A stretch of 64,000 nucleotides of DNA. Source: Nitrospinota bacterium (lineage in GTDB: Bacteria > UBA8248). The notes beneath the pieces are model-generated. The model saw nothing but the letters and a program-made list of their open reading frames with translations. It searched no databases and was not told the DNA's origin. Position 1 is the stretch's first letter; every line of letters begins with the position of its first letter. Below are positions 9,389 to 46,589 of the stretch, one piece after another. The position numbers and the translations under genes were made by a program. The DNA lies in the NCBI GenBank assembly GCA_036231405.1, contig JAZAHK010000006.1, forward strand, positions 126,812-190,811. Reading direction: 5' to 3'.

Positions 9389-9404
9389 CGGGAAAATCTC
9401 AAAA

Positions 9405-11291: not shown

Positions 11292-11305
11292 AACTAATTC
11301 CTCAT

Positions 11306-12628: not shown

Positions 12629-12630
12629 AA

Positions 12631-26228: not shown

Positions 26229-27278
26229 CTAAAAAGATTTAAGCTTTTCTCTAGCCTTTTTAGAGGCATCTGAAGAAGGGAACCTTATAATAAGTCTTGA
26301 CAACAATTCTCTCGCACTCGCCCTATCACCAAAATTCAAGTAAGACATTGCTTCATAAAAAATAGAATCAGGCACCATATCCCCCTTTGGATAGTCTACT
26401 TGTACCTTACTGAAACCTAGAATAGCTTGTTCAAAACTTTTTTTAATATAAAAAATCTTCCCGATCCAAAATTGGGCATCATCAGAAAGAGTGTGATTAG
26501 GATATTTATTCAAGAAATTCTCGAAAAGAACACGTGAACTGTTTAAACTCTTACCGTAACGATAGAATCGGACAGCATTCTTAAATTCGATCTCTGCTTG
26601 AGAAAGTGTTTTTTTAGCTGAGACAATTTTCGAGTTATTTTTTTTTGCCACACTACCGATTTTTTTATTTAAAACTAAAGATTTCCCAACAGGAGCAAGT
26701 TTCTGATCTGGTTGACCAACTAGAAGGGATTCTCTCTTTCCATTTTTGTTTAAAGAACCTTTATATCCATAGGGTATTTTTTGTTTTAAGATTTTTGTCA
26801 GTTTTTGTTTCATTTCTTTCAACTCACTTAACAAAATTTCATTTTTTTTCTTTAGAAATAAAATATCATCTGCCAGTTTCTTTTCTCTTTTTTTTGTTTC
26901 ATTTTTATATTCAATAAAATCCCTTTTGAACGAATGCAAGGATTCAGATAATCTTTTTGACTCTTTTTTCTGATTTTTACTTAAACTATTTACATTTTCT
27001 TTTATTTTAAAAATTTCTTGATTTTTGGAAAAAGAATCTGATTCCGAACGAATTAATTTTGATAGTGACGAATCGATTGGAAGTACATTTTTTTTTAATC
27101 TAATTTTTTTCTGTACTGCTATTTCTGGCCCTACCTTCTTTTTCTTAGGAATTAAGGTTTCTCCGACAACTGGGGAACTTAATTGAAACCCAGGCTCGTC
27201 ACACCCTGCCATGAGAACGCAAAGAGAAGTCAAATATAGTATTGATTTTAAGTAATTATAAGGATAGAAATTCATCAT
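26229..27278 (-). CDS. cpoB: Tol-Pal system protein YbgF/CpoB (signal peptide, long coiled coil, C-terminal TPR)
   Basis: Lies last in the tolQRAB-pal order. The C-terminal TPR-like region and a Lys/Glu-rich coiled coil are present. Confidence 0.7.
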   Translation of the reverse strand: MMNFYPYNYLKSILYLTSLCVLMAGCDEPGFQLSSPVVGETLIPKKKKVGPEIAVQKKIRLKKNVLPIDSSLSKLIRSESDSFSKNQEIFKIKENVNSLSKNQKKESKRLSESLHSFKRDFIEYKNETKKREKKLADDILFLKKKNEILLSELKEMKQKLTKILKQKIPYGYKGSLNKNGKRESLLVGQPDQKLAPVGKSLVLNKKIGSVAKKNNSKIVSAKKTLSQAEIEFKNAVRFYRYGKSLNSSRVLFENFLNKYPNHTLSDDAQFWIGKIFYIKKSFEQAILGFSKVQVDYPKGDMVPDSIFYEAMSYLNFGDRASARELLSRLIIRFPSSDASKKAREKLKSF

Positions 27279-27339
27279 AAAAAAACTCCCCAGATTTAAT
27301 CTAGGGAGTCCTTATTGAACTAAGCGACATAAAGCATAC

Positions 27340-28008
27340 TTAATTTAAACCAGAAGGTATTCCACCAATAACATTGGATTTCGCTCGACGATTCTTCGAC
27401 CAGGCAGACTCATCGTGTCCTGAATCAGCTGGACGTTCCTCTCCATAACTAACCGTGTCTATTCTTGATGCATCAACACCAAGAGAAACTAGATAATCCT
27501 TTACAGCCTGAGAACGACGATGTCCTAGTGCAATATTATACTCAACAGTACCTCTTTCGTCGCAATGACCTTCTATCTGTACAAGCAGGGTGGGGTTATT
27601 TTCCATAAAACGTGCATTCGTATCTAAAATTGAACGCATTGCAGGCTTTATGTCCGACTTATCAAAATCAAAATAAATAGGGGAATCCTCAAATCTTGCT
27701 AAATCTTTTTTAAAACCAGAACGTCTAGCCTCACGCTCGTTTTCAGGCATACTTCCACTACTTCCACTACTTCCACTACTTCCACTACTTCCACTACTTC
27801 CACTACTTCCACCTTCGGAGCCTCTCATTTTGGTCTTCATAGAGGAAGCGGAACTTGAACCATCAGAGGTCTTCTTTGCAAGATCTTCAGATGCACAGCC
27901 AACGAAAAATAAGAAAGCAGCTAAGACTACAAAAAACGGAAAACGAGAAACAGAATAAATCGAGTACATAATACCCCCTTGCAGTCCCCCAATTAAATAT
28001 GTAACCAC
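27340..28008 (-). CDS. pal: Peptidoglycan-associated lipoprotein Pal (OmpA family) with (SGS)n linker
   Basis: Has a lipobox (VGCAS), the OmpA_C motif [12 protein letters not shown], and sits directly after tolB. Confidence 0.85.
27751..27813. repeat. Perfect 9-bp tandem repeat (ACTTCCACT x6 plus one variant copy), encoding (SGS)n inside pal
   Basis: Read directly from the sequence; it is a coding VNTR that preserves the frame. Confidence 0.9.
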
Positions 28009-28116
28009 ATAAGAAATTTAAAAGAAATTACAAACACGTCCTTGATTATATGATTATAAATTGCTTAGAGCAACCCTTTTTAAGTACAACAGTGTATTCA
28101 ATAAAAAAACTTCTTT

Positions 28117-29463
28117 TTATCGAGGTAATGGCGCCCAATCTGGTTCTTGACCAGGTTGTAGTTTCTTTAACTGTGTTCCTGAATCAGTCATAGTATAAAC
28201 ATACTTTCTGCCTTCACGATCAGATGAAAATGCAATATGTCTTCCATTGGGAGACCAAGTTGGAGACTCATTTCTTCCTTGACTACCAGTGAGTCTTCTC
28301 ACACCAGAACCATCCGGGTTCATTGTAACGATATCAATTTCTTTACCCCTTTTAACTCTACCAGTATAAGCAATTTTATCTCCCTTAGGACTCCAAACAG
28401 GTTCTGTATTATAATTGCCACTAAAAGTGATTCTATTTAAATTAGTTCCATCAGAATTCATCACATAAATATGAGGATTCCCATGTCGACTACTATTGAA
28501 AACAATTTTTCTCCCATCTGGTGAATAAGAAGGGGAAACATCAATTCCCCAACTATTCGTTAATCTTCTCTTGATTCTTCTAAATAGATCGTAACGAACT
28601 AGCTCATAATTAGGACGTCTTTTCCCAATTAACTGGGAATATATAAAAAACCTACTTGTAGGATTCGCAGGTGAGAAAGATCCACCAATTGCCTGAGCCT
28701 TCCTAGAACTGACTCGTAACTGTCTTCCTCCATTAGTTGGAATTAAAAAAACTCCTGGAGGATTTGTTTTAAAGGATGAAAAAGCCAACCACTTGCCATC
28801 CGGGGACCAAGAAGGTGCATTATTACCCCTCCGATTTCTTGTAATCCTCCTCAGATTAGTACCATTCCAATTCATAATAAATATAACACCCTTTTCTTCT
28901 ATTGAACGTCTAGATACAAATGCTATTTCTGTATCAAATATCCCCTTATCTCCCGTAAACCTTTCATAAACTTCATTTGCAAAACGATGGGCTATAGAAC
29001 GCCAATTGCTTATACTATCTTGCTTGTACCATTTATTTAATATGCTTCTTTTACGAAAAACATCGAAAAGGCTGAAATTGACTCTAATTCTTTTGCCTTT
29101 TATACGAACAGAACCTTTAACTAGTGATTGCACTTTAATAATTTTTTCCCAATTACGAAACTTTAAACATCTCTTTTCTATGCATTGTCTTGAAGGACTT
29201 TCTAGATAACCTTTTCGGTCTGGTATATAAAAAAGACCCGTTCTTTCTAAATCTTCTTGAACGAGTTCTGAAATTTTCAACCCAATGTTGTTTTTTCGAT
29301 AATTCATAGGTTTTAATTCAGAAATTGCTATACGAATCTTACGAACTCTAGAAGAAAAAATATCTAAATACACACGTTTTTTCGCGTAACACTCAGATGT
29401 AAAAAAATGAAAATAAGAAAATGTAAAAAAGACAATTAGACAAAAAAGAAGTAATTTTTTCAT
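28117..29463 (-). CDS. tolB: Tol-Pal system beta-propeller protein TolB
   Basis: Repeated PSWSPDG, PSYSPDG and PTWSPNG blades follow a TolB_N-like N-terminal region; the ORF is 448 aa. Confidence 0.9.
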   Translation of the reverse strand: MKKLLLFCLIVFFTFSYFHFFTSECYAKKRVYLDIFSSRVRKIRIAISELKPMNYRKNNIGLKISELVQEDLERTGLFYIPDRKGYLESPSRQCIEKRCLKFRNWEKIIKVQSLVKGSVRIKGKRIRVNFSLFDVFRKRSILNKWYKQDSISNWRSIAHRFANEVYERFTGDKGIFDTEIAFVSRRSIEEKGVIFIMNWNGTNLRRITRNRRGNNAPSWSPDGKWLAFSSFKTNPPGVFLIPTNGGRQLRVSSRKAQAIGGSFSPANPTSRFFIYSQLIGKRRPNYELVRYDLFRRIKRRLTNSWGIDVSPSYSPDGRKIVFNSSRHGNPHIYVMNSDGTNLNRITFSGNYNTEPVWSPKGDKIAYTGRVKRGKEIDIVTMNPDGSGVRRLTGSQGRNESPTWSPNGRHIAFSSDREGRKYVYTMTDSGTQLKKLQPGQEPDWAPLPR

Positions 29464-29490
29464 TCCTTTTATATCTTCTCCATTTTAAAC

Positions 29491-29796
29491 TTAATCTTTA
29501 CAAAAACCTGTTCCACAAAAACGAAAACCAGTCGGAATCATTTTATCTTTAATAGTCTCTGGAAACTTCGGGACAAGCGGGTCAAAAGCACGAAGAATAG
29601 CATTTTTTGCAGATAGATCATACGTCTTATTTCCACTTGATTTTTTTATTCTAAGCTTACGATAACGACCATTTCTATAAATATCTACGTCAAATGTAAC
29701 TCTAAGTGATGAAATTCCTGGAATAGGTGGAAATTCGGTAAAACTACTAATTCTAGATGTTAAAACTCCATAATATCTTTCTATAGCAGAGTTCAA
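29491..29796 (-). CDS. tolA: TolA C-terminal (TonB_C-like) domain ORF, in frame with the upstream tolA segment across a TAG
   Basis: Contains LRVTFDVDIYRNGRYRKLRIKKSSGNKTYDLSAKNAILRA, TonB/TolA domain III-like. The open frame extends upstream through a Gly-rich linker to the TAG at 29944-29946. Confidence 0.6.
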   Translation of the reverse strand: MNSAIERYYGVLTSRISSFTEFPPIPGISSLRVTFDVDIYRNGRYRKLRIKKSSGNKTYDLSAKNAILRAFDPLVPKFPETIKDKMIPTGFRFCGTGFCKD

Positions 29797-29943
29797 ATTC
29801 CCGATACCACCAGTTCTCGGTTGTTTACTTCCGCCGCCCTGTCCATCTCCTCCCCCTTCTCCTAGATATCCAACCTTTGGCCGAATTGGAGAGGACTTTC
29901 CATCAGAAGTTTTGCCTATTTTTTCACTCTGCTCAAATTTAAA

Positions 29944-30654
29944 CTATTTTGATTTTTTTGTATTTTTTTTCTCATTTCTTATTCTCTTCAGATATTTCTT
30001 CCTATAGGCTTGATATCTTTTTTGACCGGAATTTACTTTCTTCTTTATTCTTCTACGTTTCTTCTTCTTTCTAATTCGTTTCTTCTTTCTAATTGGTTTA
30101 CGTTTCTTCTTCTTTCTGATTCGTTTCTTCTTTGTAATTGGTTTACGTTTTTCTGAAAGAGCTTGAATCTTCTTTTTAGTTTTAATTTTTTTCAGACTTT
30201 TTACTTCAATTTTTTTGACTTTCTTTTTTTTCACAGGAGAGATAACTCTCACCTTTTCTTTATTTTTTGTTATCCGTTTGGTGAGAGTTTTTCGATTTCT
30301 CTTGAAAACAGTCTTCTTGACTAATGGTTTTTCTATCTCAATTTTTTTTTGTTTAACCGGAATAATATCGCCTGATTTTCCCTTCGCAGAACCTCCTGGT
30401 ATTTCGTCCGCCCCTATAAGGCTGACGGCAGTTCCACTTCCGTAAAAACGATATTCTGTTTCAGTGCTAAATATAAAAACCCACAAAAAAATGACTATAT
30501 GTATTAAAAAAGATGATAGAAAAGAAATTCTAAAGGAAAACTTCTTATAGATTTGATCCTCGTTTGAGGTTACAAGCTGACTTCTCTCCGATTGGATGAA
30601 CGAATCTTTCGGGCTTTCATTATCAGGGTCTTTTATTGGAAGGATTTCACTCAT
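29944..30654 (-). CDS. tolA: TolA N-terminal segment (TM anchor plus Lys-rich helical domain II), ending at an in-frame TAG
   Basis: TM helix FLSSFLIHIVIFLWVFIF followed by a highly basic repeat region. It occupies the tolA position between tolR and tolB. Confidence 0.6.
   Translation of the reverse strand: MSEILPIKDPDNESPKDSFIQSERSQLVTSNEDQIYKKFSFRISFLSSFLIHIVIFLWVFIFSTETEYRFYGSGTAVSLIGADEIPGGSAKGKSGDIIPVKQKKIEIEKPLVKKTVFKRNRKTLTKRITKNKEKVRVISPVKKKKVKKIEVKSLKKIKTKKKIQALSEKRKPITKKKRIRKKKKRKPIRKKKRIRKKKKRRRIKKKVNSGQKRYQAYRKKYLKRIRNEKKNTKKSK
30055..30144. repeat. Two near-identical 45-bp tandem units (plus a partial third) inside tolA, encoding KRKPIxKKKRIRKKK repeats
   Basis: Units 30055-30099 and 30100-30144 differ at 2 positions. 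Confidence 0.8.
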
Positions 30655-30687
30655 TTCAGACCTAAATCAACAACTAAACAAAATTGT

Positions 30688-31122
30688 TTATTTTCTAGAT
30701 TTTTTCCTTTGCGGAGGCTCAGTTACCATACTTATTTTTTTTATCCCAGAAGACCGTATCAAATCCATTACGATCATGACATTTCCATAAGAAATTATTC
30801 TGTCAGCCCTTAAAAAGATTTCTTTTTTACTTCTCGAGGCAAATAAAATCTCTAGTTTCTTTTTTAACTCTGGTTGAGGAATTTCATTGTCATTTAGATA
30901 TACGATTCCTTGTTTATCAATAGAAACAATTACAGCTGTCTCTGTCATATTCGCTTTTTGTCCAGTCTTCACCTGAGGCAAATTCAAATTTATAGATTCA
31001 TTTTTCGTTTCCAAAAGTGGTGCCGTAACCATAAAAATAACTAAAAGCACCAACATAACATCAACTAGTGGGGTAACATTGATGTCAGACAGAGTAGAAT
31101 TTTTATTCAGATTAATCGCCAA
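30688..31122 (-). CDS. tolR: Biopolymer transport protein TolR (ExbD family)
   Basis: Contains INVTPLVDVMLVLLVIFMV and is 144 aa. Confidence 0.85.
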   Translation of the reverse strand: MAINLNKNSTLSDINVTPLVDVMLVLLVIFMVTAPLLETKNESINLNLPQVKTGQKANMTETAVIVSIDKQGIVYLNDNEIPQPELKKKLEILFASRSKKEIFLRADRIISYGNVMIVMDLIRSSGIKKISMVTEPPQRKKSRK

Positions 31123-31146
31123 AAAAACCCTTTCTTACAAAATGCA

Positions 31147-31830
31147 CTAAAAATGTCTTTGAACTAGATTTAAAAAATCAGAAATAAAATTTTCCATCTC
31201 ATTGGTAATAACTTTAATACGATTTTGGTAGTGATTATAAGCAATTACAGCTGGAATCGCAGCAGCTAAGCCCAATGCAGTTGCAACAAGTGCTTCGCTA
31301 ATTCCTGGAGCTACAACAGCCAATCCAGCTGAACCCTGAAGCCCAATATCTCGAAAAGCATTCATAATTCCCCATACCGTACCAAAAAGACCTATAAATG
31401 GAGTTGCACTCGCTGTGGTGGCAAGAAAGGTAAGTAGTCTCTCAAGATTTCCAATTTGTTGATTTGCTGAGCGGTGAAGCGCGCGTTCTACACTTTCGAT
31501 ACCACTTAATTCAAAAGATCCACCACTGGATAGACCATTTTCCGTATCCTCTTTGCTAGAATCCATTAATTGTTTGGTTTGACGAAATCCAGCTAGAAAA
31601 ACCTCTCCAACCGGACTATCAGAAAAATCCTTAAAGGATTCATAAAGTTGATTTAAAGATTGAGACTTCCAAAAATAATCTAAGAATTCATAGGAAAGCG
31701 ATTTCGCTCTCCTCAACTCAAAATATTTCCAAATTATGATTGACCAAGAAGTAAGCGAAAAAAATAAAAGAATAAGCAAAACAAAAAAAACGACACCACC
31801 AGAACCAATCGCATGGCTTAAAAAATCCAT
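31147..31830 (-). CDS. tolQ: Tol-Pal system protein TolQ (MotA/TolQ/ExbB proton channel)
   Basis: Three-TM ExbB-like protein. The ATG at 31830 (MDFLSH) is preceded by GGTGATGGA; the ORF track start at 31929 adds 33 residues with no homology. Confidence 0.8.
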   Translation of the reverse strand: MDFLSHAIGSGGVVFFVLLILLFFSLTSWSIIIWKYFELRRAKSLSYEFLDYFWKSQSLNQLYESFKDFSDSPVGEVFLAGFRQTKQLMDSSKEDTENGLSSGGSFELSGIESVERALHRSANQQIGNLERLLTFLATTASATPFIGLFGTVWGIMNAFRDIGLQGSAGLAVVAPGISEALVATALGLAAAIPAVIAYNHYQNRIKVITNEMENFISDFLNLVQRHF

Positions 31831-32043
31831 TCCATCACCACTAGAACCCGTAACCGATTTATTTATTACTGTAGATGCATAAAGAAAGTTCATTAGATTT
31901 AAAAACATCCTTAAAGGCAGAGGAACCAAGTATTACCCAATTTTTAGACTACAGTCAATACAAACGATTTAATGATAAATAATTGACAGAAAAGATACTC
32001 GACATGGATAATGGTATCTGCATTTTGGAGGATTTCAAAAATT

Positions 32044-33210
32044 ATGACTGCACAAATAAAACAAGAAGTAATTGATTACATTGATTCAATAAGCAAAGAA
32101 ATTTGGGACTTGTCGATAGAATTACATAAAAACCCTGAACTGAGCTTAAAAGAGCATAATTCTAGTGAAATATTATGCAATTACCTTTTGAAACATGGGT
32201 TCAAAGTACAAAGAGGATTAGCTAACTTGCCTACCGCATTTTTAGCAGAAAATAAAAGCATAAAGAAACGTAAAATTGGATTTGTCTCTGAATATGATGC
32301 ACTACCAGAATTAGGTCATGCCTGCGGTCATAATATTATTGCTATGGCAAGTATTGCTGCCGGAGTCTCAATCAATAAAATTTTTGGCGGTAAATTTTGT
32401 CAGATAAAAATCTTTGGGACACCAGGAGAAGAAAGCGGAGGTGGAAAAGTATTAATTGCTAAAGGTGGTCACTTTGACGGAATAGACGCGATTATGATGA
32501 TACATCCTTCCAATGAGACAAGAGTAAACGTAAACTTCCTTGCATTAGCAGAAATCGAGATAGAATTTACAGGCAAAAGTGCACATGCATCTGCATCTCC
32601 AGAGGATGGATTAAACGCCCTAGATTCTATAATTGCAACATTTAATTCAATTAGTGCACTTAGACAACATTTACCTAAAGGGGATAAAATTCATGGTATT
32701 ATCACAAGTGGCGGGAGTGCCCCCAATATTATTCCAGAAAAAGCCTCTGCAAAATTTTATTTAAGAAGTTTAACAAATCAGGGTCTTAAGAATGTTACCA
32801 AACGTTTTATAGACTGTGTAAATGGCGCGGCCATAGCAACTGGGACAAAATCAAAAATATATAAAAATCCTATCAGTTATTTTCCCCTGAAACAAAACAA
32901 GACACTCTGTTCCGTTTTTCGTGCAAACCTTTCTCAACTCGGTTTGAACGAATCTATTGACTTGCCTCCAATAAAAATGGGGTCTTCTGATATAGGAAAC
33001 GTTAGCCAAGTCGTTCCTACAATACACCCACAAATTCAAATGGTAGACGAGGAAATCAATGCCCATACAAAAGAATTTGCTTCTGCTGCAAAAAGCAATT
33101 CAGGTAAAAAAGTATTGTTTTTAGGGGCAAAAGCGATGGCCATGACGGCTTTAGATATTTCAATTGACTCTTCTCTCCTCAGAAAAATTAAATCAGAATT
33201 TAAATCATGA
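32044..33210 (+). CDS. M20D-family amidohydrolase (aminoacylase/hippurate hydrolase-like)
   Basis: Contains GHACGHNII. The ATG at 32044 is preceded by GGAGGA. Confidence 0.8.
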   Translation: MTAQIKQEVIDYIDSISKEIWDLSIELHKNPELSLKEHNSSEILCNYLLKHGFKVQRGLANLPTAFLAENKSIKKRKIGFVSEYDALPELGHACGHNIIAMASIAAGVSINKIFGGKFCQIKIFGTPGEESGGGKVLIAKGGHFDGIDAIMMIHPSNETRVNVNFLALAEIEIEFTGKSAHASASPEDGLNALDSIIATFNSISALRQHLPKGDKIHGIITSGGSAPNIIPEKASAKFYLRSLTNQGLKNVTKRFIDCVNGAAIATGTKSKIYKNPISYFPLKQNKTLCSVFRANLSQLGLNESIDLPPIKMGSSDIGNVSQVVPTIHPQIQMVDEEINAHTKEFASAAKSNSGKKVLFLGAKAMAMTALDISIDSSLLRKIKSEFKS

Positions 33211-33217
33211 GGAAAAA

Positions 33218-35386
33218 ATGTACTTGATTTCTATGAATTTTAATAAATTCTTTTTACTTTTACTCTTATGTGCTTTTGCTTTTACACACAATGCAAATGC
33301 AAATCTAAGAGAAACCAGTGATTCTACACCCGAGTTTCTGTCAAATAAGATACTTCTTAATTTAAAAAATAAAAAATATAAGAAAGTAGTGCAAATACTT
33401 AAAGAAAAAAATGATTTAAGCGAACGAGAAAATTTTCTAATAGGATTTGCATTATTTAAAACAAATAATTGCAAAGATGCTGTTCAATATCTAAAACAAG
33501 TAGGAAAAAAGGAAAATTTACTAAAACCCTATGGAATGTTTTTTTTAGGAAAGTGTTACCAAGTGATAAAAAACAATCCTTCCGCAATAAGGATTTATAA
33601 AGAAATTATCAATAAGTACCCTCATTTTATCTTTGCCAAAAAAATTCAAACTGACTTAATTTTACTTTTTATTAAAGAGAAACAGTATGGTCTTGCTATT
33701 AGAATCATTGACAATTTTGATAAAAATAGAATTTCCAGCAAACTACTCTCTGACAAAGCAAATTCCCACGAAAAAAGAGGTGAAATTAAAAAAACAATAG
33801 AAACATGGCGTAAAATATGGCTTTTCTTTCCTCATAAAATTGAAGCTAAAAAAGCTTACAAAATATTAAGAGAGAAAAAATCTTTTAGAATAAATCCTTT
33901 TACAGAACAACAACTTTTTCAACGAGCAAAAACTTTACGACGCAAGTATTTTTTTAAAGAATCACTTCACCAATTAGATGAAATAGTCAAAAAATTTCCA
34001 AAAACAAAATTACTGAAAAAAATTGAATTTTATAGAGCTTTTAATCTTTTTTCTCTTAGGAAAACAAAAGATGCGAGGCTATCTTTTCAAAAAATTATAA
34101 ATTCAGGAAAAATCTCTGCTTTTAAAAAATCAAAAATTCGTTTTTATCTATCGAGGAATTATTTAAGAGAAAGAAACAGAAAAGCTTTTGAAAATGAAGC
34201 TGCTCTTATATTGAAAGAAACACCAAAAAGTTCATGGGCTAAAACAACTCTATATTTACTTGCTAGAGTGCATCAAGATGAATTTCAAGATAAAAAAGCA
34301 AAATCTTTTTATAAAAAATTATTATTAGAATTTCCAGATCCAAAATTTATTGAAAAGTCAAAACGACAACTGGCCTGGATAAATTTTCGTGCAGAAAAAT
34401 ATTTAAAAGCATTGAAGGGATTTAAAGAAGTAATTGCAATATCTAATAGAAGGGAATTAGTTTCTTCTTCATTTTTTTGGGCTGGTATCTCATCTGAAAA
34501 AACTAATAACTTCGAATTAGCGATTCAATTTTTTCAAAGATGTATAAATAGATATAGAAGAAACTACTATGGACATCTTTGTTTAGATCGTCTTTTGAAA
34601 TTGCAAAAAAAAGTAGGTTTGAAAACACTAATTGTAGACCCTCTTAAAAAGAGCAATTTAAATCGTTGGTTTGAACGACCAGAAAAGTCAATTAAAAATA
34701 AATCATTCTATATAGCAAGAACTTTCTCATCTATTGGTCTTCATAAATTTGCTGCGGAAGAGTATAAAAGAAGCGGAAAACATCGATACTTTAAATTTCA
34801 AGCCGCAAGATCTTACTATTTATCAGATGAAAAAAATAAAGCATTAAGAATCATTTTCCGTTCTTTCAATAAAATACTTTATTCTGGCGGAACAAATATT
34901 CCAAATGAATTTTGGAATATTGCGTATCCGATTGAAAAATTAAAAAATAAACCAAAAAACACTGATGTCTACTTATTGCACTCAATTATTAAGGCTGAAA
35001 GTCTTTTCGATCAATATGCAATATCTCCCGCCGGCGCAATTGGAATGATGCAACTTATGCCTAAAACTGCACGAAGAGTATCGAAAAAATACGGAATAAA
35101 ATTTAAATCAAAATTTGATTTATTTGATTCAACTATCAATAAACAAATAGGCGCACATCATATGCAAGATTTGTTAAAAACATTCAAAGGAGAAATTGTT
35201 CCTGTTATAGCTAGCTATAATGCTGGGAGATCAGTGGTTTTAAGATGGTGGAAAAATAGAAAAAATGAATCCATCGAGGTTTTTATAGAACAAATACCTT
35301 ATATAGAAACTCGAAAGTATGTAAAAAAAGTTTTAGGTTATTATAGAGAATATAAAAATATTTATTCAAAAAAGGCAAATCAATAA
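33218..35386 (+). CDS. Soluble lytic murein transglycosylase (Slt-like; superhelical N-domain plus C-terminal SLT domain)
   Basis: A signal peptide begins at ATG 33218. The C-terminal motif is AESLFDQYAISPAGAIGMMQLMP. Confidence 0.8.
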   Translation: MYLISMNFNKFFLLLLLCAFAFTHNANANLRETSDSTPEFLSNKILLNLKNKKYKKVVQILKEKNDLSERENFLIGFALFKTNNCKDAVQYLKQVGKKENLLKPYGMFFLGKCYQVIKNNPSAIRIYKEIINKYPHFIFAKKIQTDLILLFIKEKQYGLAIRIIDNFDKNRISSKLLSDKANSHEKRGEIKKTIETWRKIWLFFPHKIEAKKAYKILREKKSFRINPFTEQQLFQRAKTLRRKYFFKESLHQLDEIVKKFPKTKLLKKIEFYRAFNLFSLRKTKDARLSFQKIINSGKISAFKKSKIRFYLSRNYLRERNRKAFENEAALILKETPKSSWAKTTLYLLARVHQDEFQDKKAKSFYKKLLLEFPDPKFIEKSKRQLAWINFRAEKYLKALKGFKEVIAISNRRELVSSSFFWAGISSEKTNNFELAIQFFQRCINRYRRNYYGHLCLDRLLKLQKKVGLKTLIVDPLKKSNLNRWFERPEKSIKNKSFYIARTFSSIGLHKFAAEEYKRSGKHRYFKFQAARSYYLSDEKNKALRIIFRSFNKILYSGGTNIPNEFWNIAYPIEKLKNKPKNTDVYLLHSIIKAESLFDQYAISPAGAIGMMQLMPKTARRVSKKYGIKFKSKFDLFDSTINKQIGAHHMQDLLKTFKGEIVPVIASYNAGRSVVLRWWKNRKNESIEVFIEQIPYIETRKYVKKVLGYYREYKNIYSKKANQ

Positions 35387-35389
35387 ATC

Positions 35390-36592
35390 ATGCTAAGGCC
35401 AAAAAGAACAATTAACGCAATAGGATTAATGTCTGGGACATCTACAGACGGGGTTGATGTAGTATGTATTGAAATAAACTCTAAAAAAGAAACAAAACTA
35501 GTTGCTTTTGAATCTTATCCATATCCTAAAGAACTAAGAATTAGATTATTAGCCATTGCAAACAATAACGAAACAACAGCCGCAGAAATTAGCTCTCTTC
35601 ATGTTGAACTTGGCGAATCTTTTGCGAATGCAGTTCTAAGTTTAACCTCCAAACATAATATAGAAAAACTTGATTTAGATTTTATTGGGAGCCACGGCCA
35701 GACAATTAGCCATGTTCCTAAAGGAGGAACTGGGAACTATGGAATTATTTATCCTTCTACATTTCAGATAGGAGATCCTTCTGTAATTTCTGAACTAACG
35801 GGAATAACAGTGATTTCGGACATGCGGTCAAGAGATGTTGCAGCAGGGGGAAGTGGAGCTCCTTTAACCCCATGGGCACACGAAAAACTTTTTAAAAACA
35901 AAAATCACCCTTCAGCTTTTTTAAATTTAGGAGGAATTGCAAATATTACCTACATTCCACAAACTGATGAGGCAGATCTTTTTGGATTTGATTGTGGACC
36001 TGCAAACATGGTAATTGACAGGTTAATTTCTCTATTTACCAGAGATAAAAAAAAATTTGATCATGAAGGGAAAATAGCAGGCAAAGGGAAAATTAACAAA
36101 AAAGAATTAGACCGGTTGTTGAAAAACCCTTATCTTTCTTTACCACTTCCAAAAAGTACAGGTAGTGAGGATTTTGGAAAGGAATTTACTGAGAAATTAA
36201 TGACTCATTTTCAATCAAAAAAAATGAATATAAATGACATCTTAGCAACTTCTACTGCTTTTACAGCGGAAACAATTTATCAATCAATAGTTAAGTACTT
36301 TCCCCAAGAAAAACCAATTAAGGAGTTAATTGTCGGAGGGGGAGGAGTAAAAAATAAAACACTAATGTCCTTTTTAGAATCAAGGTTAAAACCGATCTCT
36401 ATTATCTCTTCAGAAAAAAAGGGATTCCCTCATGATGCGGTTGAAGCTGTTTGTTTTGCGCTGTTAGGTTGGGGAACTCTATCAAATACTCCTTCAAATG
36501 TTCTGGCATCTACTGGAGCAAAATCAGAAGTAGTTCTCGGAAATATAACTCCTGGATTAAATTTTAAAAAACTTTATGACCTTAAATATTGA
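35390..36592 (+). CDS. anmK: Anhydro-N-acetylmuramic acid kinase
   Basis: N-terminus GLMSGTSTDGVDVV; the ORF is 400 aa. Confidence 0.9.
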   Translation: MLRPKRTINAIGLMSGTSTDGVDVVCIEINSKKETKLVAFESYPYPKELRIRLLAIANNNETTAAEISSLHVELGESFANAVLSLTSKHNIEKLDLDFIGSHGQTISHVPKGGTGNYGIIYPSTFQIGDPSVISELTGITVISDMRSRDVAAGGSGAPLTPWAHEKLFKNKNHPSAFLNLGGIANITYIPQTDEADLFGFDCGPANMVIDRLISLFTRDKKKFDHEGKIAGKGKINKKELDRLLKNPYLSLPLPKSTGSEDFGKEFTEKLMTHFQSKKMNINDILATSTAFTAETIYQSIVKYFPQEKPIKELIVGGGGVKNKTLMSFLESRLKPISIISSEKKGFPHDAVEAVCFALLGWGTLSNTPSNVLASTGAKSEVVLGNITPGLNFKKLYDLKY

Positions 36593-37796
36593 AAATTTTT
36601 TTATTGAGGAAAAAATTTTGGGGAAAAAAATAGATCAGCTCACAAAAGAAACTATCGAACTAACAAGAGCTCTGGTTCAAATTCCAAGTGAAAATCCAAA
36701 TGGAAACGAATCCAAGGTTGTAGGATTTCTAGAGTCATTTTTCAAAAAAAATAATATACCTGTAGAAAAAAGCATTGTAACAAAAAAACGGGAAAACCTG
36801 ATTGTAGAAATAGGTGAAAGAAAAAATAAATCGCTCGCTTTTGTTAACCATATGGATACAGTACCTGCAGGCGATGGATGGAAAATGAATCCTTTTTCAG
36901 GAAAAGTTTCAAAAGGAAAATTATGGGGTAGAGGTTCGTGTGATATGAAAGGTGGAATTGCTTCCTCTCTTATAGCATTGAAAGAAATCAAAAGAAAAAT
37001 CGATGCAGGTAAAAAATTCGAAAATTTTCTTAAATATTTTCTCGTAGTCGATGAAGAAAGCGCTTGGATGGAAGGTGTCTCTCACGAAATTGATAAAGGG
37101 AAAATCACAAAAAAAGATATAGTCATTTCTTGTGAACCTACATCTCTAGATCTGGTTATCGCTCAAAAAGGAGCAATGTGGTACGAAATCGAAATAAAAG
37201 GAAAAAACGCGCATGCAGCATCTCCACACATGGGAATAAATGCAATTCACGCATCTTGTGTCGCAATTGAGAATCTTAACAAACAATTTGAAAAAAAAGA
37301 TTTTTCAAATCCCTTGCTAGGGAAAACAACTTTTGTGCCGAGTATCATCCAAGGAGGAAGAAAAACAAATATGGTAGCGGATCAGTGTAAATTTCAAATT
37401 GATGTTCGTTTTATTCCACCTCTTACAATTAAAAAAGTTGGAGATCTAATAAAAGATACAATTCATAAATCTTGTCGAATGTTCCCTGGAACAAAAGGGA
37501 GCGTTCAAACAATTTGCATAGACCGACCTCCTATTATTTCAAATGAAAAAAGTTATGGAGGTGAACTTATTAGGAGAGTTCTTAGAGAAAATTTTGGATC
37601 AAAATCCAAAAAATTTGGTGTAAGCTATTACTCAGATGCAGGAGTAGTCGCCTCAAGGACGAAAAATAAACAATGTTTTCTTTTAGGTCCTGGCAATATA
37701 GAACAAGCTCATAGTCCTAACGAATTTGTGAATATAAAAGAACTTTCAAAAGCTACCAAAATATATCTAGATATAATTCAAAAACATCTTTTATAA
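36576..37796 (+). CDS. M20 family peptidase (ArgE/DapE-like deacylase)
   Basis: Contains the metal-ligand motifs FVNHMDTVP and CDMKGG; the ORF is 406 aa. Confidence 0.75.
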   Translation: MTLNIENFFIEEKILGKKIDQLTKETIELTRALVQIPSENPNGNESKVVGFLESFFKKNNIPVEKSIVTKKRENLIVEIGERKNKSLAFVNHMDTVPAGDGWKMNPFSGKVSKGKLWGRGSCDMKGGIASSLIALKEIKRKIDAGKKFENFLKYFLVVDEESAWMEGVSHEIDKGKITKKDIVISCEPTSLDLVIAQKGAMWYEIEIKGKNAHAASPHMGINAIHASCVAIENLNKQFEKKDFSNPLLGKTTFVPSIIQGGRKTNMVADQCKFQIDVRFIPPLTIKKVGDLIKDTIHKSCRMFPGTKGSVQTICIDRPPIISNEKSYGGELIRRVLRENFGSKSKKFGVSYYSDAGVVASRTKNKQCFLLGPGNIEQAHSPNEFVNIKELSKATKIYLDIIQKHLL

Positions 37797-37803: not shown

Positions 37804-39993
37804 CTAAACCACTTTTTCTTTTTTCTCATTTGATTTAGCTATATTTAGAATTTCCTGAATTTCATTCACTCTAACAACTTCTCCTAACTTTTCGTATATG
37901 TCTCTTGCCTCGCTGAGTTTTTCACAGGACATCGCCCATTCATTTTTTTCAAAAAGAACACGTCCTAAATTTGTCAAATTGAGAGCTATTCCAGGTAAAT
38001 TATCACTCTCACAATTTAACTCTAAAGCCCTTTCACTAAAAATTTGTGCTTCCTCAAGACTGTCTTGAAAGTAGTGAATATTCGCAATACTCGCAAGATT
38101 ACTAGCCTCTCCTTTTGAATTATAAATCTCTTTATAAATTTCAACTGCCTTTTTATGGTACAAGAGTGCTTTTGAAAATTGATCCTTCGCTGTAAACGCT
38201 AATCCCATATGACCTTGGATAAGTGCTTCTTGTTCCCTGTTCCCTATTAATTGACTAATTCGTAAGGCCTCTTCTAAACTTTTCAAAGACGCTTCTATTG
38301 AACCAGATTTCGTTTGAGTAGAAGCTACAGCTACAAGGGATTGTATGCGAGTTAATTCTTTCCCCTTCCCTTGAGAAAGTTGGATCGCTTCCATCAAATG
38401 ACGACGTGCTTCGTCTTTCTTTCCAATGTTATTAAAAATTTTACCAACTCTTAAATGAAGATTTGGTAATAAAGAAGTATCTATGTTTAAATCCGCTTCT
38501 TCTAAGACATCAAGATAAGATTTTAAGGCTTTTGTAAGTTCTCCTTTTTGAAGATAAAAATACCCAAGATTTGATAAAACTGTAGCTTTTAGGATTCTAT
38601 CATCGCCACATTCTCGGGTTGCTTCTAAGCTATAAGTAATTGAAGATTCAAGATTATTCTTTGCAAAACTCGCAACCGCTAAAGCATTTAGAACAAAACC
38701 TAGTTGTTCAGTCTGGAGCAGTGTCTCTTTGAGAATAGATGTAGCCTTATTATATTTCTGTTGATACAAATAAGTTATTCCAACACGAAGAAGTACATCT
38801 GATGAAACACTCTCTCCTTCCGCTGTTAGTTTCATAATCTGTTCTTCTATTGTTCGTAAAAGAGAAACATCATATTCGGATAACTTCTTACTTGGTTTTT
38901 CTACAGATAAATATAGGTCACTACAAACTGTCTCTAAGGATCTATGCATTTCCTCCATATTGTGAAATTTGGTTCTGGAAATATTTAGATCTTTCTCTTT
39001 ATTATTAACACTAGCGTTCAAATCAGATGCAGAATTATCAAATTCAATTATTGGGTTATAATCATTTTCAACATCCAATGGGTTTTCCTCAGAAGAAATA
39101 ACATTTATTTTTTCGTCATTCTTCGCAATTTGAACAACATTGTTTGTCGAATCTCGATCTTCATTTTCAAGCACATCAAAAATTTCATCATGATTTGCAA
39201 GTTCATTTTTTCTCTGTTCTTGAATTTTTTTACTATCAGAAAGTTCATTTTCTTTAGATTTTTCGAAAATTTCCTCAGAAAAAGAAAATAAAACTTCATC
39301 TCTCTCTGAATTTTGAGGAGAATTTATTTTATTTTTCTCATTTGTCTCATCCAACTTGAAATTCTTTTGTTCAGACACTTCGTCTTTCGTTAAATTTTCT
39401 TTCAGAACTGAATCTTCAGTTTCGAGCGAGTTTTTATGTCGCTCTTCTTCTGGGAAAAAAGGAAGTTCAATTTGAGACAAATCTTCTGATGATTGCCCAG
39501 GTTCTACAGATATCTTTTCATAAATCTCAGTCTTTTCTTCATCCTTCAATCTTATAACGTTTGTCTTTTTTTCTTCCTTCTCAATTTTTTCATAATTGTT
39601 TTGAGTTTTTATAATCTTTTCTGGTTCTTTATTTTGAATTTGAGGAAGATATTTATTTTTTTTCAAAAAATTCAAGAAATAAAATTTAAAATATTTTCGA
39701 ATTCCAGATTCCGTTGAGATCTTTTGATTCTTTTTCTCGGATTTTTGTAATAGAGAGTCATAATTCGAAATTGTTTCTTTTTCTACCGACACAAATGTTG
39801 TCTTACTTCCGGAGATTATCTCAACAGAATCATTAGATGAAAGACTCTGGCTTAAATCTCTAAGTAAAAAATCTGGATCATCTTTTTTAAACTTTTTAGA
39901 CCCGCTGAAACGCATAAACAGGAAAATCAAAAATCCCATTAATGTAACTGTGATCAAGACTAAAAAGTCTGGAGACAACATCCAAGAAATCAA
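37804..39993 (-). CDS. Membrane-anchored tetratricopeptide-repeat protein with long acidic low-complexity linker
   Basis: An N-terminal TM helix, about 300 aa of Glu/Lys/Ser/Asn-rich sequence, then C-terminal TPR repeats. Confidence 0.65.
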   Translation of the reverse strand: MISWMLSPDFLVLITVTLMGFLIFLFMRFSGSKKFKKDDPDFLLRDLSQSLSSNDSVEIISGSKTTFVSVEKETISNYDSLLQKSEKKNQKISTESGIRKYFKFYFLNFLKKNKYLPQIQNKEPEKIIKTQNNYEKIEKEEKKTNVIRLKDEEKTEIYEKISVEPGQSSEDLSQIELPFFPEEERHKNSLETEDSVLKENLTKDEVSEQKNFKLDETNEKNKINSPQNSERDEVLFSFSEEIFEKSKENELSDSKKIQEQRKNELANHDEIFDVLENEDRDSTNNVVQIAKNDEKINVISSEENPLDVENDYNPIIEFDNSASDLNASVNNKEKDLNISRTKFHNMEEMHRSLETVCSDLYLSVEKPSKKLSEYDVSLLRTIEEQIMKLTAEGESVSSDVLLRVGITYLYQQKYNKATSILKETLLQTEQLGFVLNALAVASFAKNNLESSITYSLEATRECGDDRILKATVLSNLGYFYLQKGELTKALKSYLDVLEEADLNIDTSLLPNLHLRVGKIFNNIGKKDEARRHLMEAIQLSQGKGKELTRIQSLVAVASTQTKSGSIEASLKSLEEALRISQLIGNREQEALIQGHMGLAFTAKDQFSKALLYHKKAVEIYKEIYNSKGEASNLASIANIHYFQDSLEEAQIFSERALELNCESDNLPGIALNLTNLGRVLFEKNEWAMSCEKLSEARDIYEKLGEVVRVNEIQEILNIAKSNEKKEKVV

Positions 39994-40005: not shown

Positions 40006-41595
40006 TTAGGAAGGAAATTTTCTGAGAGCTATCCCAGGTGTAGTTCCAGTAAGTTCCCCATCTTCAACAACTACAATTCCGTTAACAAGAACCATATAAA
40101 TGCCTTCGGGATATACCATTGGATTTTCATATGTACTTTTATCTTGAATTTTTTTTGGATCAAATAAAACTAGATCAGCTTTCATTTCTGGAGCAACCCT
40201 TCCTCTATTGCCTATTCCTAACCGACTACAGGGCAACGATGTCATTTTCCTTATTGCCTCAGGCATACTCATTAGCTTTTCTTTAACCACCAATGAACCT
40301 AACACTTGGGGAAATGTTCCAAAATTTCTCGGATGTGGCTTTCCTACACCAAGAGGAGGTTTGTGAGTTAGAGCACCTGCGTCCGAACCAACCATAGTGT
40401 AGTCTTTCTTCATGATTCTACGCATGTTATTTTCATTCATCATAAAAATAATTATCTCTACGTTCAACTTTTCTTCTATCAATAAGTCTAATGTAATCTC
40501 AGAAGAAATTTTGGATTTTTCTTTTGCAAGTTGAAGCAACGTTTTTCCTTCTGCATTTTTATTTTTCTTTGTCAAAACACGACTGATCAAAATACTATCC
40601 CAATCCTTATCAGTATTCCTTTTTTGAGATAGTTCAGAGATTAAAAAATTTCTCGTTTCTTTTTTCTGTAAGCGTTCTATTTTTTGATTTAATGAACCTT
40701 CGTGCGCCCAATCTGGCAAAAGAGCACTTAAATGTGTATTCGAAGCAATGTATGGATAACGGTCACATGTAACATCTTGTCCTGCGTTTCGGTGCTCTTC
40801 AATTAAATCAAAAGCTGCATCTAACTTGTTCCAATTTTTCTCCCCAGCTGTCTTTAAATGACTAATTTGAATTGGGAGTTGAGCCTGCTTTGAAATGTTA
40901 AGTACTTCCTGAATACTATCAATGAGCAAATCCCCTTCACTCCTCATGTGTGTGGCAAAAAACCCTCCTCTCTTTGCAACAATTTCGCAAAGTGCTACCA
41001 ATTCACTAGGCTCTGCAAAATTGGCAGGTGAATAAACTAAACCTGTAGATAACCCGAAAGCTCCATGTCGCATTCCTTCATCAACTAGTTTACCCATTTC
41101 AAGTAACTGCTTTTGATTACAAGGTAATGCACTACCACCCATCACGCTAGCCCTAATAGTATTATGTCCAATTAGTGGGGCATAATTGACTGCTATACCT
41201 TGATCTTCGATTATTTGTAAATATTCATCGAGGGATTGAAAAGATAATTGAAGATCAAACTGTTCATTGTATAGACTCCTACGCATCTCAAATTCAGTTC
41301 CGCCTATGGGAGCAGCAGAGTAACCACAATTACCACCCACTTCAGTTGTTATGCCTTGCTTAACTTTCGCCTCAGCAGATGGATTTATTAACAAGTAATA
41401 ATCTGAATGGCTATGAATATCTATAAAACCGGGACAAACTGCCAAACCAGTAGCATCGATTTGCTTTGAAAATTTTCCAGAAATTGACGGTTCAATATTA
41501 GAAATGTAACTACCATTAATTGCTATATCGCTCACATAGGGATCTGTTCCGAGCCCATCATAAATATCAGCATTTCTAAAAATTAAATCGTACAT
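40006..41595 (-). CDS. N-acyl-D-amino-acid deacylase (D-aminoacylase, amidohydrolase 3 family)
   Basis: The N-terminus carries a PGFIDIHSHSD metal site; the ORF is 529 aa. Confidence 0.8.
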   Translation of the reverse strand: MYDLIFRNADIYDGLGTDPYVSDIAINGSYISNIEPSISGKFSKQIDATGLAVCPGFIDIHSHSDYYLLINPSAEAKVKQGITTEVGGNCGYSAAPIGGTEFEMRRSLYNEQFDLQLSFQSLDEYLQIIEDQGIAVNYAPLIGHNTIRASVMGGSALPCNQKQLLEMGKLVDEGMRHGAFGLSTGLVYSPANFAEPSELVALCEIVAKRGGFFATHMRSEGDLLIDSIQEVLNISKQAQLPIQISHLKTAGEKNWNKLDAAFDLIEEHRNAGQDVTCDRYPYIASNTHLSALLPDWAHEGSLNQKIERLQKKETRNFLISELSQKRNTDKDWDSILISRVLTKKNKNAEGKTLLQLAKEKSKISSEITLDLLIEEKLNVEIIIFMMNENNMRRIMKKDYTMVGSDAGALTHKPPLGVGKPHPRNFGTFPQVLGSLVVKEKLMSMPEAIRKMTSLPCSRLGIGNRGRVAPEMKADLVLFDPKKIQDKSTYENPMVYPEGIYMVLVNGIVVVEDGELTGTTPGIALRKFPS

Positions 41596-41669: not shown

Positions 41670-42872
41670 TTATAGAATCAATCTAGTCTGCATTTCTTTA
41701 TTCTGTTCTATCGATATACTTTCACCTTTTAATGCAGTAACAAACTGAAGAGTTTCCTTATCCAAAAGACAAAAATTTACATCAGACCCTGATATAATTG
41801 TTCCCAAAATTTCTTCAAGACCCAATAACTTGGCAGGATTTCTAGTTAGAGTTGCAATTACTGAAAGATTATCGAGATTACTCCAACTTTTAAACAATGG
41901 AAGAGCTTCGCCCAATGTCAATTTGCTTCCTGAAAGCACCTCTCTTTTTATAGGGTTTTTTTCAAATAAACCAAACTCTGAAACAAGATCAGAAGTCAAG
42001 ACTATTTTTTGCCAACCTTTTTTTTTCACAAAGCTCTTAATAACACTAGGAGATACATGAACACCATCCGAAATAATACCTGTGTATAAAAGAGAATTGT
42101 CAGCTACCTCTAGCATTGGATCGTCGGTTCTATGTAAAGGATTTTTATCTTCCTTTGAGGAATACCTATTATAAACGTGAACGGCAAAACGAGCACCAGC
42201 ATTTACACAATCTCTTATTCTTTCTGAAGATGCCATAGTATGACCTATGGCAGGTATTACATCCCTTACTGACAACCATTTTATGAGGTCCAATGCGGAA
42301 TCTAATTCCGGTGAGAACGTAACCATTTTTAATCCTGGATTACCAAAACGACCAAATCCCCCACATGATTTCGCGATTAACTCTATTTCAGAAAAATCAA
42401 TTTTTCTTAAAAATTTTATGGGATGAGCTCCACACATTTTCGGATTAAAAAAAGGTCCCTCCATATGAACTCCAAGAATTGTTGCTTCATAGCAAGCTCG
42501 TTTTTGTTGATTTGACCACGCAGTTTTAATTGCTTCTGCAGCAGATAATGCAGTTTTTATAGAACAACTAGTTAACGTTGGTAGGAAGGAAGTAGTGCCC
42601 GTTTTAAATAGGTTTTTTGCAATTCTATTAATTGCAAAAGGGTCTGCAGACAAAATTGTATCTTGCCCAAATCCGTTAACCTGCAAATCAATAAAGCCAG
42701 GAGTCAAAATGGAATCAGCTAAATCGTACGACAGAACTTGTACTGGAAGATCAACTCCAGAACTGGGGCCGATATAAACTACAGAAGAATCCTCAATGAG
42801 GACTAATGAGTCTCTGATTTTTTCTGTAGGTGTAAGAACCTCGCAACCGACAAGAGCGAGGGATTTCGACAT
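41670..42872 (-). CDS. nagA: N-acetylglucosamine-6-phosphate deacetylase
   Basis: Contains PGFIDLQVNGFG; the ORF is 400 aa. Confidence 0.85.
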   Translation of the reverse strand: MSKSLALVGCEVLTPTEKIRDSLVLIEDSSVVYIGPSSGVDLPVQVLSYDLADSILTPGFIDLQVNGFGQDTILSADPFAINRIAKNLFKTGTTSFLPTLTSCSIKTALSAAEAIKTAWSNQQKRACYEATILGVHMEGPFFNPKMCGAHPIKFLRKIDFSEIELIAKSCGGFGRFGNPGLKMVTFSPELDSALDLIKWLSVRDVIPAIGHTMASSERIRDCVNAGARFAVHVYNRYSSKEDKNPLHRTDDPMLEVADNSLLYTGIISDGVHVSPSVIKSFVKKKGWQKIVLTSDLVSEFGLFEKNPIKREVLSGSKLTLGEALPLFKSWSNLDNLSVIATLTRNPAKLLGLEEILGTIISGSDVNFCLLDKETLQFVTALKGESISIEQNKEMQTRLIL

Positions 42873-46478: not shown

Positions 46479-46589
46479 TTTTTTTTGGTAGAATTTTAGA
46501 TTTATCAAAATAATCTTTTTAAAATTGAAATTATAATATTTTATATCGGCACAAAAAAAATGATTTGTCACATAGTAGATAAAATTGAT

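Follow-up and report, generated by a model that had tools for sequence, protein, structure and literature searches.

The 64,000-nucleotide stretch of Nitrospinota DNA analyzed here (the window; contig JAZAHK010000006.1 of the metagenome-assembled genome GCA_036231405.1, G+C content of approximately 33%) contains, at positions 32011 to 37796, a block filled by four plus-strand open reading frames (ORFs). These encode an M20D amidohydrolase (gene 1), the soluble lytic transglycosylase Slt (gene 2), the anhydro-N-acetylmuramic acid (anhMurNAc) kinase AnmK (gene 3), and an M20 deacylase (gene 4). We consider it fairly probable that this block forms an operon conserved in the Nitrospinota, which serves the turnover and recycling of peptidoglycan and in which M20D is a conserved partner of AnmK. 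For Slt, AnmK, and M20D a role in recycling has good support, and gene 4 is an addition to the operon specific to this lineage. The four co-directional and tightly packed genes reported in a preliminary description of this DNA are present, and the family names given there were upheld by profile searches. The products of genes 1 and 4 are 100% identical to annotated proteins of a Nitrospinota metagenome-assembled genome.

Gene 3 (35390 to 36592, plus strand) encodes a 400-amino-acid protein that exceeds the cut-off of the AnmK equivalog NF007148 (424 bits versus 387, residues 5 to 389 of 400) and matches the AnmK family PF03702 over its full length (353 bits). Gene 2 (33218 to 35386, plus strand; 722 amino acids from the ATG at 33218, with the longest ORF starting from the TTG at 33164) encodes a periplasmic, Slt70-like soluble lytic transglycosylase. 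It has a Sec signal peptide, MYLISMNFNKFFLLLLLCAFAFTHNANA, read from the sequence by eye, a superhelical N-terminal part with TPR matches over residues 44 to 450, and a C-terminal SLT domain (PF01464, 90 bits, residues 578 to 688). Its orthologues carry PF27553 SLT_superhelical. The hallmarks of the Slt70-type catalytic domain are a Glu-Ser motif, GLMQ, and AYNxG, and gene 2 presents IIKAESLFD (ES), GMMQLMP (GMMQ), and ASYNAGRS (SYNAG). The matches with Slt from Pseudomonas aeruginosa (5OHU, E = 2e-21) and Slt70 from Escherichia coli (1QSA, E = 9e-15) involve the catalytic domain only, as does the alignment with the Slt equivalog PRK11619, in which gene 2 scores 87 bits versus a cut-off of 536. 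The best NCBIfam match is a Borrelia BB0259-type model (166 bits versus a cut-off of 234). At the family level, the predicted coupling of a periplasmic lytic transglycosylase to an anhMurNAc kinase, already proposed in the preliminary description, is solid.

Gene 1 (32044 to 33210, plus strand) encodes a cytoplasmic M20D amidohydrolase/carboxydipeptidase of 388 amino acids that passes the M20D model TIGR01891 (197 bits versus a cut-off of 154). Its closest solved relatives are HmrA from Staphylococcus aureus (PDB 3RAM, E = 1e-76, residues 6 to 381) and mammalian PM20D2 (E = 2e-65). Both align over the full length, and the active-site motifs GHACGHN, PxEE, and GSSDxGNVSxVVPTIHP are common to gene 1 and the solved M20D members. 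The HmrA/PM20D2 family hydrolyzes dipeptides or N-acyl-L-amino acids with a free C-terminal carboxylate, and PM20D2, in line with its PDB chain name, prefers β-Ala-Lys/Xaa-Arg. HmrA is described as a carboxydipeptidase, with Met-X dipeptides as its preferred substrates in vitro (Jamdar 2015, as cited in PMC9486568). It was discovered through an increase in methicillin resistance in S. aureus, which ties it to the cell wall, and in staphylococci hmrA forms an operon with the ligase gene ldmS that is tied to sulfur amino acid metabolism (PMC9486568). In contrast with this hmrA-ldmS arrangement, orthologues of gene 1 are paired with anmK in the Nitrospinota and in three other phyla. A third M20-family peptidase in the window (60560 to 61924, minus strand; 454 amino acids, Peptidase_M20 and M20_dimer), located 23 kb from the operon, has no sequence relation to genes 1 and 4.

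Outside the Nitrospinota, full-length M20D orthologues (40 to 45% identity) lie directly upstream of anmK in the Nitrospirota (locus L094), the Methylomirabilales (L093), and a “Deltaproteobacteria” metagenome-assembled genome (L010 and L014, which are from the same organism). The same arrangement is found in two high-GC loci of the L093 type (L025 and L030). L010 was reached from AnmK homologues, and L093 and L094 from M20D homologues. In L010/L014 the two genes share a 4-nucleotide GTGA overlap, and in L094 an ATGA overlap. The M20D orthologue of L010 (“Deltaproteobacteria bacterium GWA2_38_16,” 36% G+C) is 40% identical to gene 1 over the full length, and its neighbors include nagZ (NF003740, 262 bits versus a cut-off of 207), oppBC-like permeases, amgK-like and murU-like genes, and an SLT gene. 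This locus suggests that the lineage uses a Pseudomonas-type AmgK/MurU route. The L010 SLT gene was considered as a counterpart of the window's slt and rejected because the two proteins are not orthologous, and linkage to slt is therefore not common to L010 and the Nitrospinota. The recycling-type genes of L010, which include an M48 peptidase, lie within 13 kb (1264 to 13869) and form a denser recycling island than that of the window. In L093 the gene order is M20D-anmK-SIS_2-x-D-aminoacylase-like. The flanks of the M20D-anmK pair differ completely between lineages, which argues that the pair itself has been retained.

The gene that follows anmK in the Methylomirabilales-type loci (L093, 10362 to 11096; L025, 8074 to 8808; L030, 2631 to 3398) encodes a 244-amino-acid SIS_2/UPF0309 “sugar isomerase domain” protein (NF002805, 290 bits). 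It was not detected in these loci by the MurQ query, and could be an alternative enzyme that processes MurNAc-6-phosphate. Two further loci (L011 and L012) have the E. coli-type anmK-murQ arrangement.

An AnmK-centered metagenome survey provided 80 loci (L013 to L092), 46 of them with enough upstream sequence. M20D is directly upstream of anmK and on the same strand in 3 of these 46 (L014, L025, and L030), a sample that is small and not phylogenetically corrected. MurQ is encoded in 14 of the 80 loci and NagZ in 7, and eight unrelated control proteins gave no matches in the same set. A YrdC/Sua5-like gene is found downstream of anmK, on the opposite strand, in 13 of the 80 loci; this name, like that of the mutS neighbor discussed below, comes from reading representative sequences and not from a profile search. 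A scan of GTDB genomes for AnmK retrieved only a distant locus from the Sphingobacteriales (L001), whose flanks contain no homologue of M20D, M20A, Slt, or the D-aminoacylase-like protein. A limited and incomplete literature search found no report that ties an M20D or D-aminoacylase family to anmK or peptidoglycan recycling, and nothing relevant on cell-wall or diaminopimelate (DAP) metabolism in Nitrospina.

The four genes of the window are operon-like, given their tight packing and the absence of a plus-strand terminator-like site within the block in a scan. With the preferred starts, the intergenic gaps are 7 nucleotides (M20D/slt), 3 nucleotides (slt/anmK), and 25 nucleotides (anmK/gene 4). 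The start of gene 1 at 32044 is supported by an upstream GGAGG ribosome-binding site and by a promoter-like site at 31983 to 32012 (plus strand; TTGACA, an 18-nucleotide spacer, and GATAAT, with 11 of 12 consensus matches). This site overlaps an earlier ATG at 32011 and sits in the 114-nucleotide intergenic region between the divergent tolQ and M20D genes. It is the best of a 7.8-kb scan but a consensus match only, and the total of promoter-like sites in the scanned region is not above the shuffled expectation. The tRNA and Rfam scans of the window were both empty, so that no riboswitch or other RNA element is tied to the operon.

Two overlaps given in the preliminary description do not survive a closer choice of start codons. 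The overlap of slt with the M20D stop holds only for the longest ORF, from the TTG at 33164. The most likely start from the sequence is the ATG at 33218, 7 nucleotides past the M20D stop, which is preceded by GAGGA, lies just ahead of the signal peptide, and is the start used by the Nitrospinota homologues. Similarly, the 17-nucleotide overlap of gene 4 with anmK needs the ATG at 36576, which is without a ribosome-binding site. The TTG at 36618, 25 nucleotides past the anmK stop, is preceded by GAGGA, coincides with the start position of all homologues and of the NCBI model (392 amino acids), and is most likely the start of gene 4. In contrast, anmK does begin directly after slt, with its ATG at 35390 placed 3 nucleotides past the slt TAA.

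Within the Nitrospinota, the M20D-slt-anmK-M20A block facing the tol-pal genes is kept in L003 and L004 (50% identity for gene 4), in L002 (45%), and in L005 (40%). In L002 and L003 the packing is tighter still, with a 1-nucleotide overlap of M20D with slt and a 4-nucleotide overlap of slt with anmK. In the deepest locus, L005, the four genes and tol-pal persist and the downstream genes are unrelated. Judged on these comparisons, the four-gene block is a predicted conserved operon of the Nitrospinota.

Gene 4 (36618 to 37796, plus strand; 392 amino acids from the TTG at 36618, or 406 from the alternative ATG at 36576) encodes an M20A deacylase of the ArgE/DapE family. It passes the ArgE/DapE model TIGR01910 (251 bits versus 217.6) and matches DapE from Enterococcus faecium (7UOI, 6e-36) and ArgE from E. 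coli (7RSF, 2e-32). The fold, the dimerization domain, and the dinuclear-metal ligands are common to these enzymes and gene 4, in which the invariant metal and catalytic residues are H92, D123, E160/E161, E187, H379, and, in the dimerization domain, H213 (406-amino-acid numbering). The residues that bind the α-amino acid moiety in DapE/ArgE, equivalent to DapE E134, H194, R258, and N245, are also retained. In contrast, gene 4 falls below every DapE equivalog (in bits/cut-off, TIGR01246 129/362, NF009557 155/284, TIGR01900 134/304, and NF006365 234/289) and below every ArgE equivalog (TIGR01892 195/298, NF003474 167/460, and NF005710 192/412), and has acyl and distal pocket residues of its own.

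The residues that discriminate DapE (Haemophilus influenzae numbering) are R178, Y197, and G324 for the succinyl group and S181, N244, and S290 for the distal carboxylate, and their counterparts in ArgE are H179, D198, and Y330 and H182, S250, and I302 (PMC11270798). The pocket of gene 4 was mapped by hand through alignments with Neisseria meningitidis DapE and E. coli ArgE. It presents Q183, S202, and Y337 in the acyl pocket and A186, T250, and I306 in the distal pocket (392-amino-acid numbering), the position of S290 being uncertain. In this mapping, with the same uncertainty for S290, none of the six DapE residues is present, which indicates that gene 4 is no canonical DapE. At three of the six positions gene 4 resembles ArgE (Y337 for Y330, T250 for S250, and I306 for I302), whereas Q183, S202, and A186 differ. 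By its residues, gene 4 is predicted to be an intact metallo-deacylase with a small acyl pocket that is ArgE-like rather than DapE-like. A function as γ-D-Glu-meso-DAP (mDAP) amidase, considered by analogy with N-succinyl-DAP, is weakened by the tyrosine at the position of DapE G324, as in ArgE, where acyl groups larger than acetyl are blocked, and by the missing succinate-binding arginine and tyrosine.

Gene 4 adjoins anmK only in the Nitrospinota, where it does so in all loci and down to 40% identity. Its nearest outgroup homologues (37 to 38% identity; L006 and L007) lie beside TRAP or branched-chain amino acid transporters, with no cell-wall genes seen near them, and the link with anmK is therefore lineage specific. 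Thus, the earlier suggestion that both M20 enzymes could take part in murein processing is strengthened for M20D by its pairing with anmK across phyla and is weaker for gene 4, whose pairing with anmK is confined to the Nitrospinota.

A four-gene minus-strand operon converges on the block from downstream and encodes, in transcription order, a 196-amino-acid protein, a NagA-like protein, a D-aminoacylase-like protein, and a TPR protein. The NagA-like and D-aminoacylase-like genes, so close on the opposite strand, had been overlooked in the preliminary description. The D-aminoacylase-family amidohydrolase (40006 to 41595, minus strand; 529 amino acids) matches D-aminoacylase from Alcaligenes faecalis (1M7J, E = 3e-79), OngB (9KB1, 1e-71), and an N-acyl-D-Glu deacylase (3GIP, 1e-58), and scores 207 bits versus a cut-off of 340 with NF006560. 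The fold and the amidohydrolase metal-ligand motifs (HxH, Cys, His, His, and Asp, read from the alignment) are common to this protein and the characterized D-aminoacylases. It differs from them in the mobile domain (residues 290 to 347), which cannot be aligned and is approximately 37 residues longer. In characterized D-aminoacylases the specificity residue is located in this mobile α/β domain (Afa L298 and Bbr R295; PMC12149444), so that an attempt to read the substrate from it failed, the residue falling within the unalignable region. Full-length orthologues with 46 to 61% identity are encoded in L002, L003, L010 (a 529-amino-acid amidohydrolase, 46% identical), and L093. The gene is thus found within a few kilobases of M20D-anmK in three different arrangements, those of the Nitrospinota, L010, and L093.

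The NagA-like (GlcNAc-6-phosphate deacetylase-like) amidohydrolase (41670 to 42872, minus strand; 400 amino acids) has TIGR00221 as its best match, over the full length and at 194 bits versus a cut-off of 226, so that the equivalog is not passed. All ten PDB matches are NagA proteins, the best being NagA from Bacillus subtilis (2VHL, 2e-35, full length), and an orthologue with 42% identity is found in L002. The preliminary description had stated that no murQ, ampG, or nagZ is visible, and that the route from MurNAc-6-phosphate onward may therefore differ or lie elsewhere. For murQ and nagZ the former is borne out by tblastn, in which queries for MurQ, NagZ, AmgK-like, MurU-like, and NamZ proteins, drawn from other loci, gave no match in the window; no bona fide AmpG was among the queries. 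The latter is only half right, given the gene for a NagA-like deacetylase 4 kb downstream. The operon is completed by the conserved 196-amino-acid protein (42880 to 43470, minus strand), which has no Pfam or NCBIfam match and has counterparts with 58% identity in the same place in L002 and L003, and by the 729-amino-acid TPR protein (37804 to 39993, minus strand), whose stop is 7 nucleotides from that of gene 4. In L002 and L003 a large TPR or unannotated protein occupies the position of the latter, and tblastn found no alignable orthologue of it in these two loci.

In the proposed mechanism, the Sec-exported Slt70-like enzyme would cleave glycan strands to 1,6-anhydro-muropeptides, and AnmK would convert anhMurNAc to MurNAc-6-phosphate in the cytoplasm. 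Gene context suggests that M20D most likely hydrolyzes the amide of a stem-peptide-derived fragment, and amino acids would be recovered in this way while AnmK recovers the sugar. The same context points to M20D as an evolutionarily conserved partner of AnmK, and to an insertion of slt into an older M20D-anmK pair in the Nitrospinota. The D-aminoacylase-like protein is, by its recurrence near this pair, probably a second partner that acts on an N-acyl-D-amino acid bond (L-Ala-D-Glu or X-D-Ala), and the amino-sugar phosphate thus formed may then lose its acetyl group through the NagA-like enzyme. The window does not encode the import step (ampG or opp) or the nagZ, murQ, or amgK/murU steps, with the limit given above for ampG.

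A more specific chemistry, which we regard as improbable, would be a previously unrecognized cytoplasmic route for removing the stem peptide from anhMurNAc, independent of AmpD, LdcA, and MpaA. Its first cut, by the D-aminoacylase-like enzyme, would be at the L-Ala-D-isoGlu bond, which is an N-acyl-D-glutamate bond with a free α-carboxylate. M20D would then hydrolyze (anh)MurNAc-L-Ala and deliver free anhMurNAc to the translationally coupled AnmK, and in the Nitrospinota gene 4 may process the leftover fragment. This putative route fits the generic chemistry of the M20D and D-aminoacylase families.

Several observations weigh against a recycling operon with M20D as partner of AnmK, and most of them would also fit a different division of labor, in which only slt and anmK serve peptidoglycan and both M20 genes are housekeeping genes (for example, for a Met-X dipeptidase or an N-acyl-amino-acid deacylase) that are co-transcribed by synteny or convenience. 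The substrates of all four amidohydrolases are putative assignments, and the preferred substrates of the characterized relatives of gene 1, Met-X for HmrA (in the work cited within PMC9486568) and β-Ala-Lys/Xaa-Arg for PM20D2, are ordinary dipeptides and no peptidoglycan fragment. Equally similar M20D orthologues are found without anmK or any cell-wall context in Geobacter (L008) and in another delta metagenome-assembled genome (L009), and the gene 4 homologues of L006 and L007 also lie in unrelated contexts. The M20D proteins compared are 40 to 55% identical to one another, and in a quick tree the anmK-linked sequences are interleaved with those of unlinked or unknown context. Around anmK, adjacency of no functional meaning appears frequent, as the commonest neighbor is mutS, which immediately precedes anmK in the same orientation in 22 of the 80 survey loci, with a median gap of 25 nucleotides. 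This mutS-anmK adjacency is probably the synteny of one dominant lineage. It indicates that adjacency alone may reflect lineage synteny, and because that lineage dominates the 80-locus sample, raw adjacency frequencies are not fair across bacteria. Moreover, in L002 and L003 the synteny extends to unrelated genes farther out (dctP, a TrkA-type channel, and bioD), and conservation inside the Nitrospinota alone is therefore weak evidence of function. The NagA-like protein does not reach the cut-off of its equivalog, and its gene is missing at the L003 locus. Inherited synteny of the M20D-anmK pair is possible as well, since the four phyla that have it may be loosely related. Against the housekeeping explanation, however, the pair persists in four phylum-level lineages with unrelated flanks, often with overlapping stop and start codons, the D-aminoacylase-like gene travels with it in three arrangements, and in L010 it is surrounded by nagZ and by amgK-like, murU-like, opp-type, and SLT genes. 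We regard housekeeping M20 genes as a real but minor possibility.

Two other explanations concern parts of the locus. Gene 4 could be a biosynthetic ArgE-type N-acetylornithine deacetylase, or a divergent DapE, that is loosely linked to the operon as a supplier of arginine or of mDAP/lysine. The pass with TIGR01910, the metal ligands and amino-acid-binding residues kept from DapE, the Tyr, Thr, and Ile at ArgE positions Y330, S250, and I302, and the name succinyl-diaminopimelate desuccinylase given to some homologues by JGI pipelines are all in line with this. It is nevertheless unlikely, as the ArgE and DapE equivalogs (TIGR01892, TIGR01246, and NF009557) remain far below cut-off, DapE R178, Y197, and G324 are replaced by Q, S, and Y and ArgE H179, H182, and D198 by Q, A, and S, and the position after anmK is kept down to 40% identity. 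Homology to arginine or lysine biosynthesis, which the preliminary description had named as the result that would count against a murein role, is therefore found for gene 4 at the level of the family and yet not at that of any equivalog. The block could also be chiefly a cell-division or envelope module co-regulated with Tol-Pal, with Slt engaged in septal peptidoglycan processing and recycling as a secondary role. The divergent tol-pal genes and their shared 114-nucleotide intergenic region are present in every Nitrospinota locus examined, L005 included, and the N-terminal part of Slt also scores with YbgF/CpoB-like TPR models. Yet M20D-anmK occurs without tol-pal in L010, L093, and L094, and AnmK has no known role beyond cytoplasmic recycling, so that we doubt this as the chief function. 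Co-regulation with Tol-Pal is in any case compatible with the recycling operon favored here.

The tol-pal operon (26229 to 31929, minus strand), divergent from M20D, comprises tolQ, tolR, tolA, tolB, pal, and a cpoB/ybgF-like gene, with matches to the families MotA_ExbB, ExbD, TonB_2, TolB_N/PD40, OmpA, and TPR_6/YfiO. In tolA (29491 to 30654, minus strand) an in-frame TAG at 29944 to 29946, inside a lysine-rich, A-rich stretch (KKNTKKSK-stop-FKFEQ), gives ORFs of 236 and 101 amino acids, whereas relatives carry a single tolA of 277 to 341 amino acids. An assembly error in a homopolymer, a pseudogene, and a genuinely split gene are all conceivable. Beyond the convergent operon, a DctP-type TRAP solute-binding protein is encoded without adjacent DctQ/DctM (43650 to 44570, plus strand), and this orphan layout, together with a TrkA-type channel, is kept in L002 and L003. 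Not far from the recycling genes is one for an MFS_1_like/HcaT-like transporter (45342 to 46571, minus strand; PF12832, 230 bits), for which a function as muropeptide permease is conceivable, and a similar gene is found at the edge of L002. At 9405 to 13149 (minus strand), translations read by eye resemble an aldehyde:ferredoxin oxidoreductase-like protein (628 amino acids), an FAD-dependent pyridine-nucleotide-disulfide oxidoreductase, and a 4Fe-4S protein. Aldehyde:ferredoxin oxidoreductase is an oxygen-sensitive type of enzyme, and the Nitrospinota are mainly aerobic nitrite oxidizers.

As an operon for peptidoglycan turnover and recycling, the locus is of an ordinary kind, and what is new is its arrangement. 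As in the recycling of E. coli and Pseudomonas (Slt70/Mlt, AmpG, NagZ, AmpD, LdcA, and AnmK, followed by MurQ-NagA or MupP-AmgK-MurU), the window has a Slt70-type enzyme, AnmK, and a NagA-like protein nearby, and a periplasmic release of anhydro-muropeptides would be followed by cytoplasmic salvage. In E. coli the recycling genes are scattered, whereas slt and anmK are here translationally adjacent in one operon. In contrast with that pathway, no nagZ, murQ, amgK, or murU was found in the window with the queries named above, and no ampG, ampD, or ldcA is seen there. The amide-cleaving companions of anmK are instead M20D, M20A, and D-aminoacylase-family proteins, none of them canonical. In E. 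coli, murein-peptide catabolism is said by Park and Uehara to pass through MpaA and the YcjG epimerase and to end with the M20 dipeptidase PepD, and Maqbool and coworkers reportedly described this MpaA-YcjG-PepD branch in 2012 (as cited in PMC6448482). An M20-clan dipeptidase as the last stem-peptide step would be a point of likeness, but PepD is an M20C and gene 1 an M20D enzyme, and the M14 peptidase MpaA and an enolase-type epimerase are not seen here. The D-aminoacylase-like enzyme could make such an epimerase unnecessary.

Knowledge of peptidoglycan recycling comes mainly from a small number of Proteobacteria and Firmicutes, and the stem-peptide enzymes of other bacteria are largely unknown. 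M20D and the D-aminoacylase-like protein are two concrete candidates for the missing recycling steps. If the M20 genes were unrelated housekeeping enzymes, the locus would be a tidy slt-anmK operon of modest interest. The AmpD-independent chemistry, if true, could explain the old link of HmrA to methicillin/β-lactam resistance in S. aureus. The Nitrospinota include the main marine nitrite oxidizers, and slow-growing, nutrient-limited cells of this kind could benefit from recovering the carbon and nitrogen of their wall efficiently.

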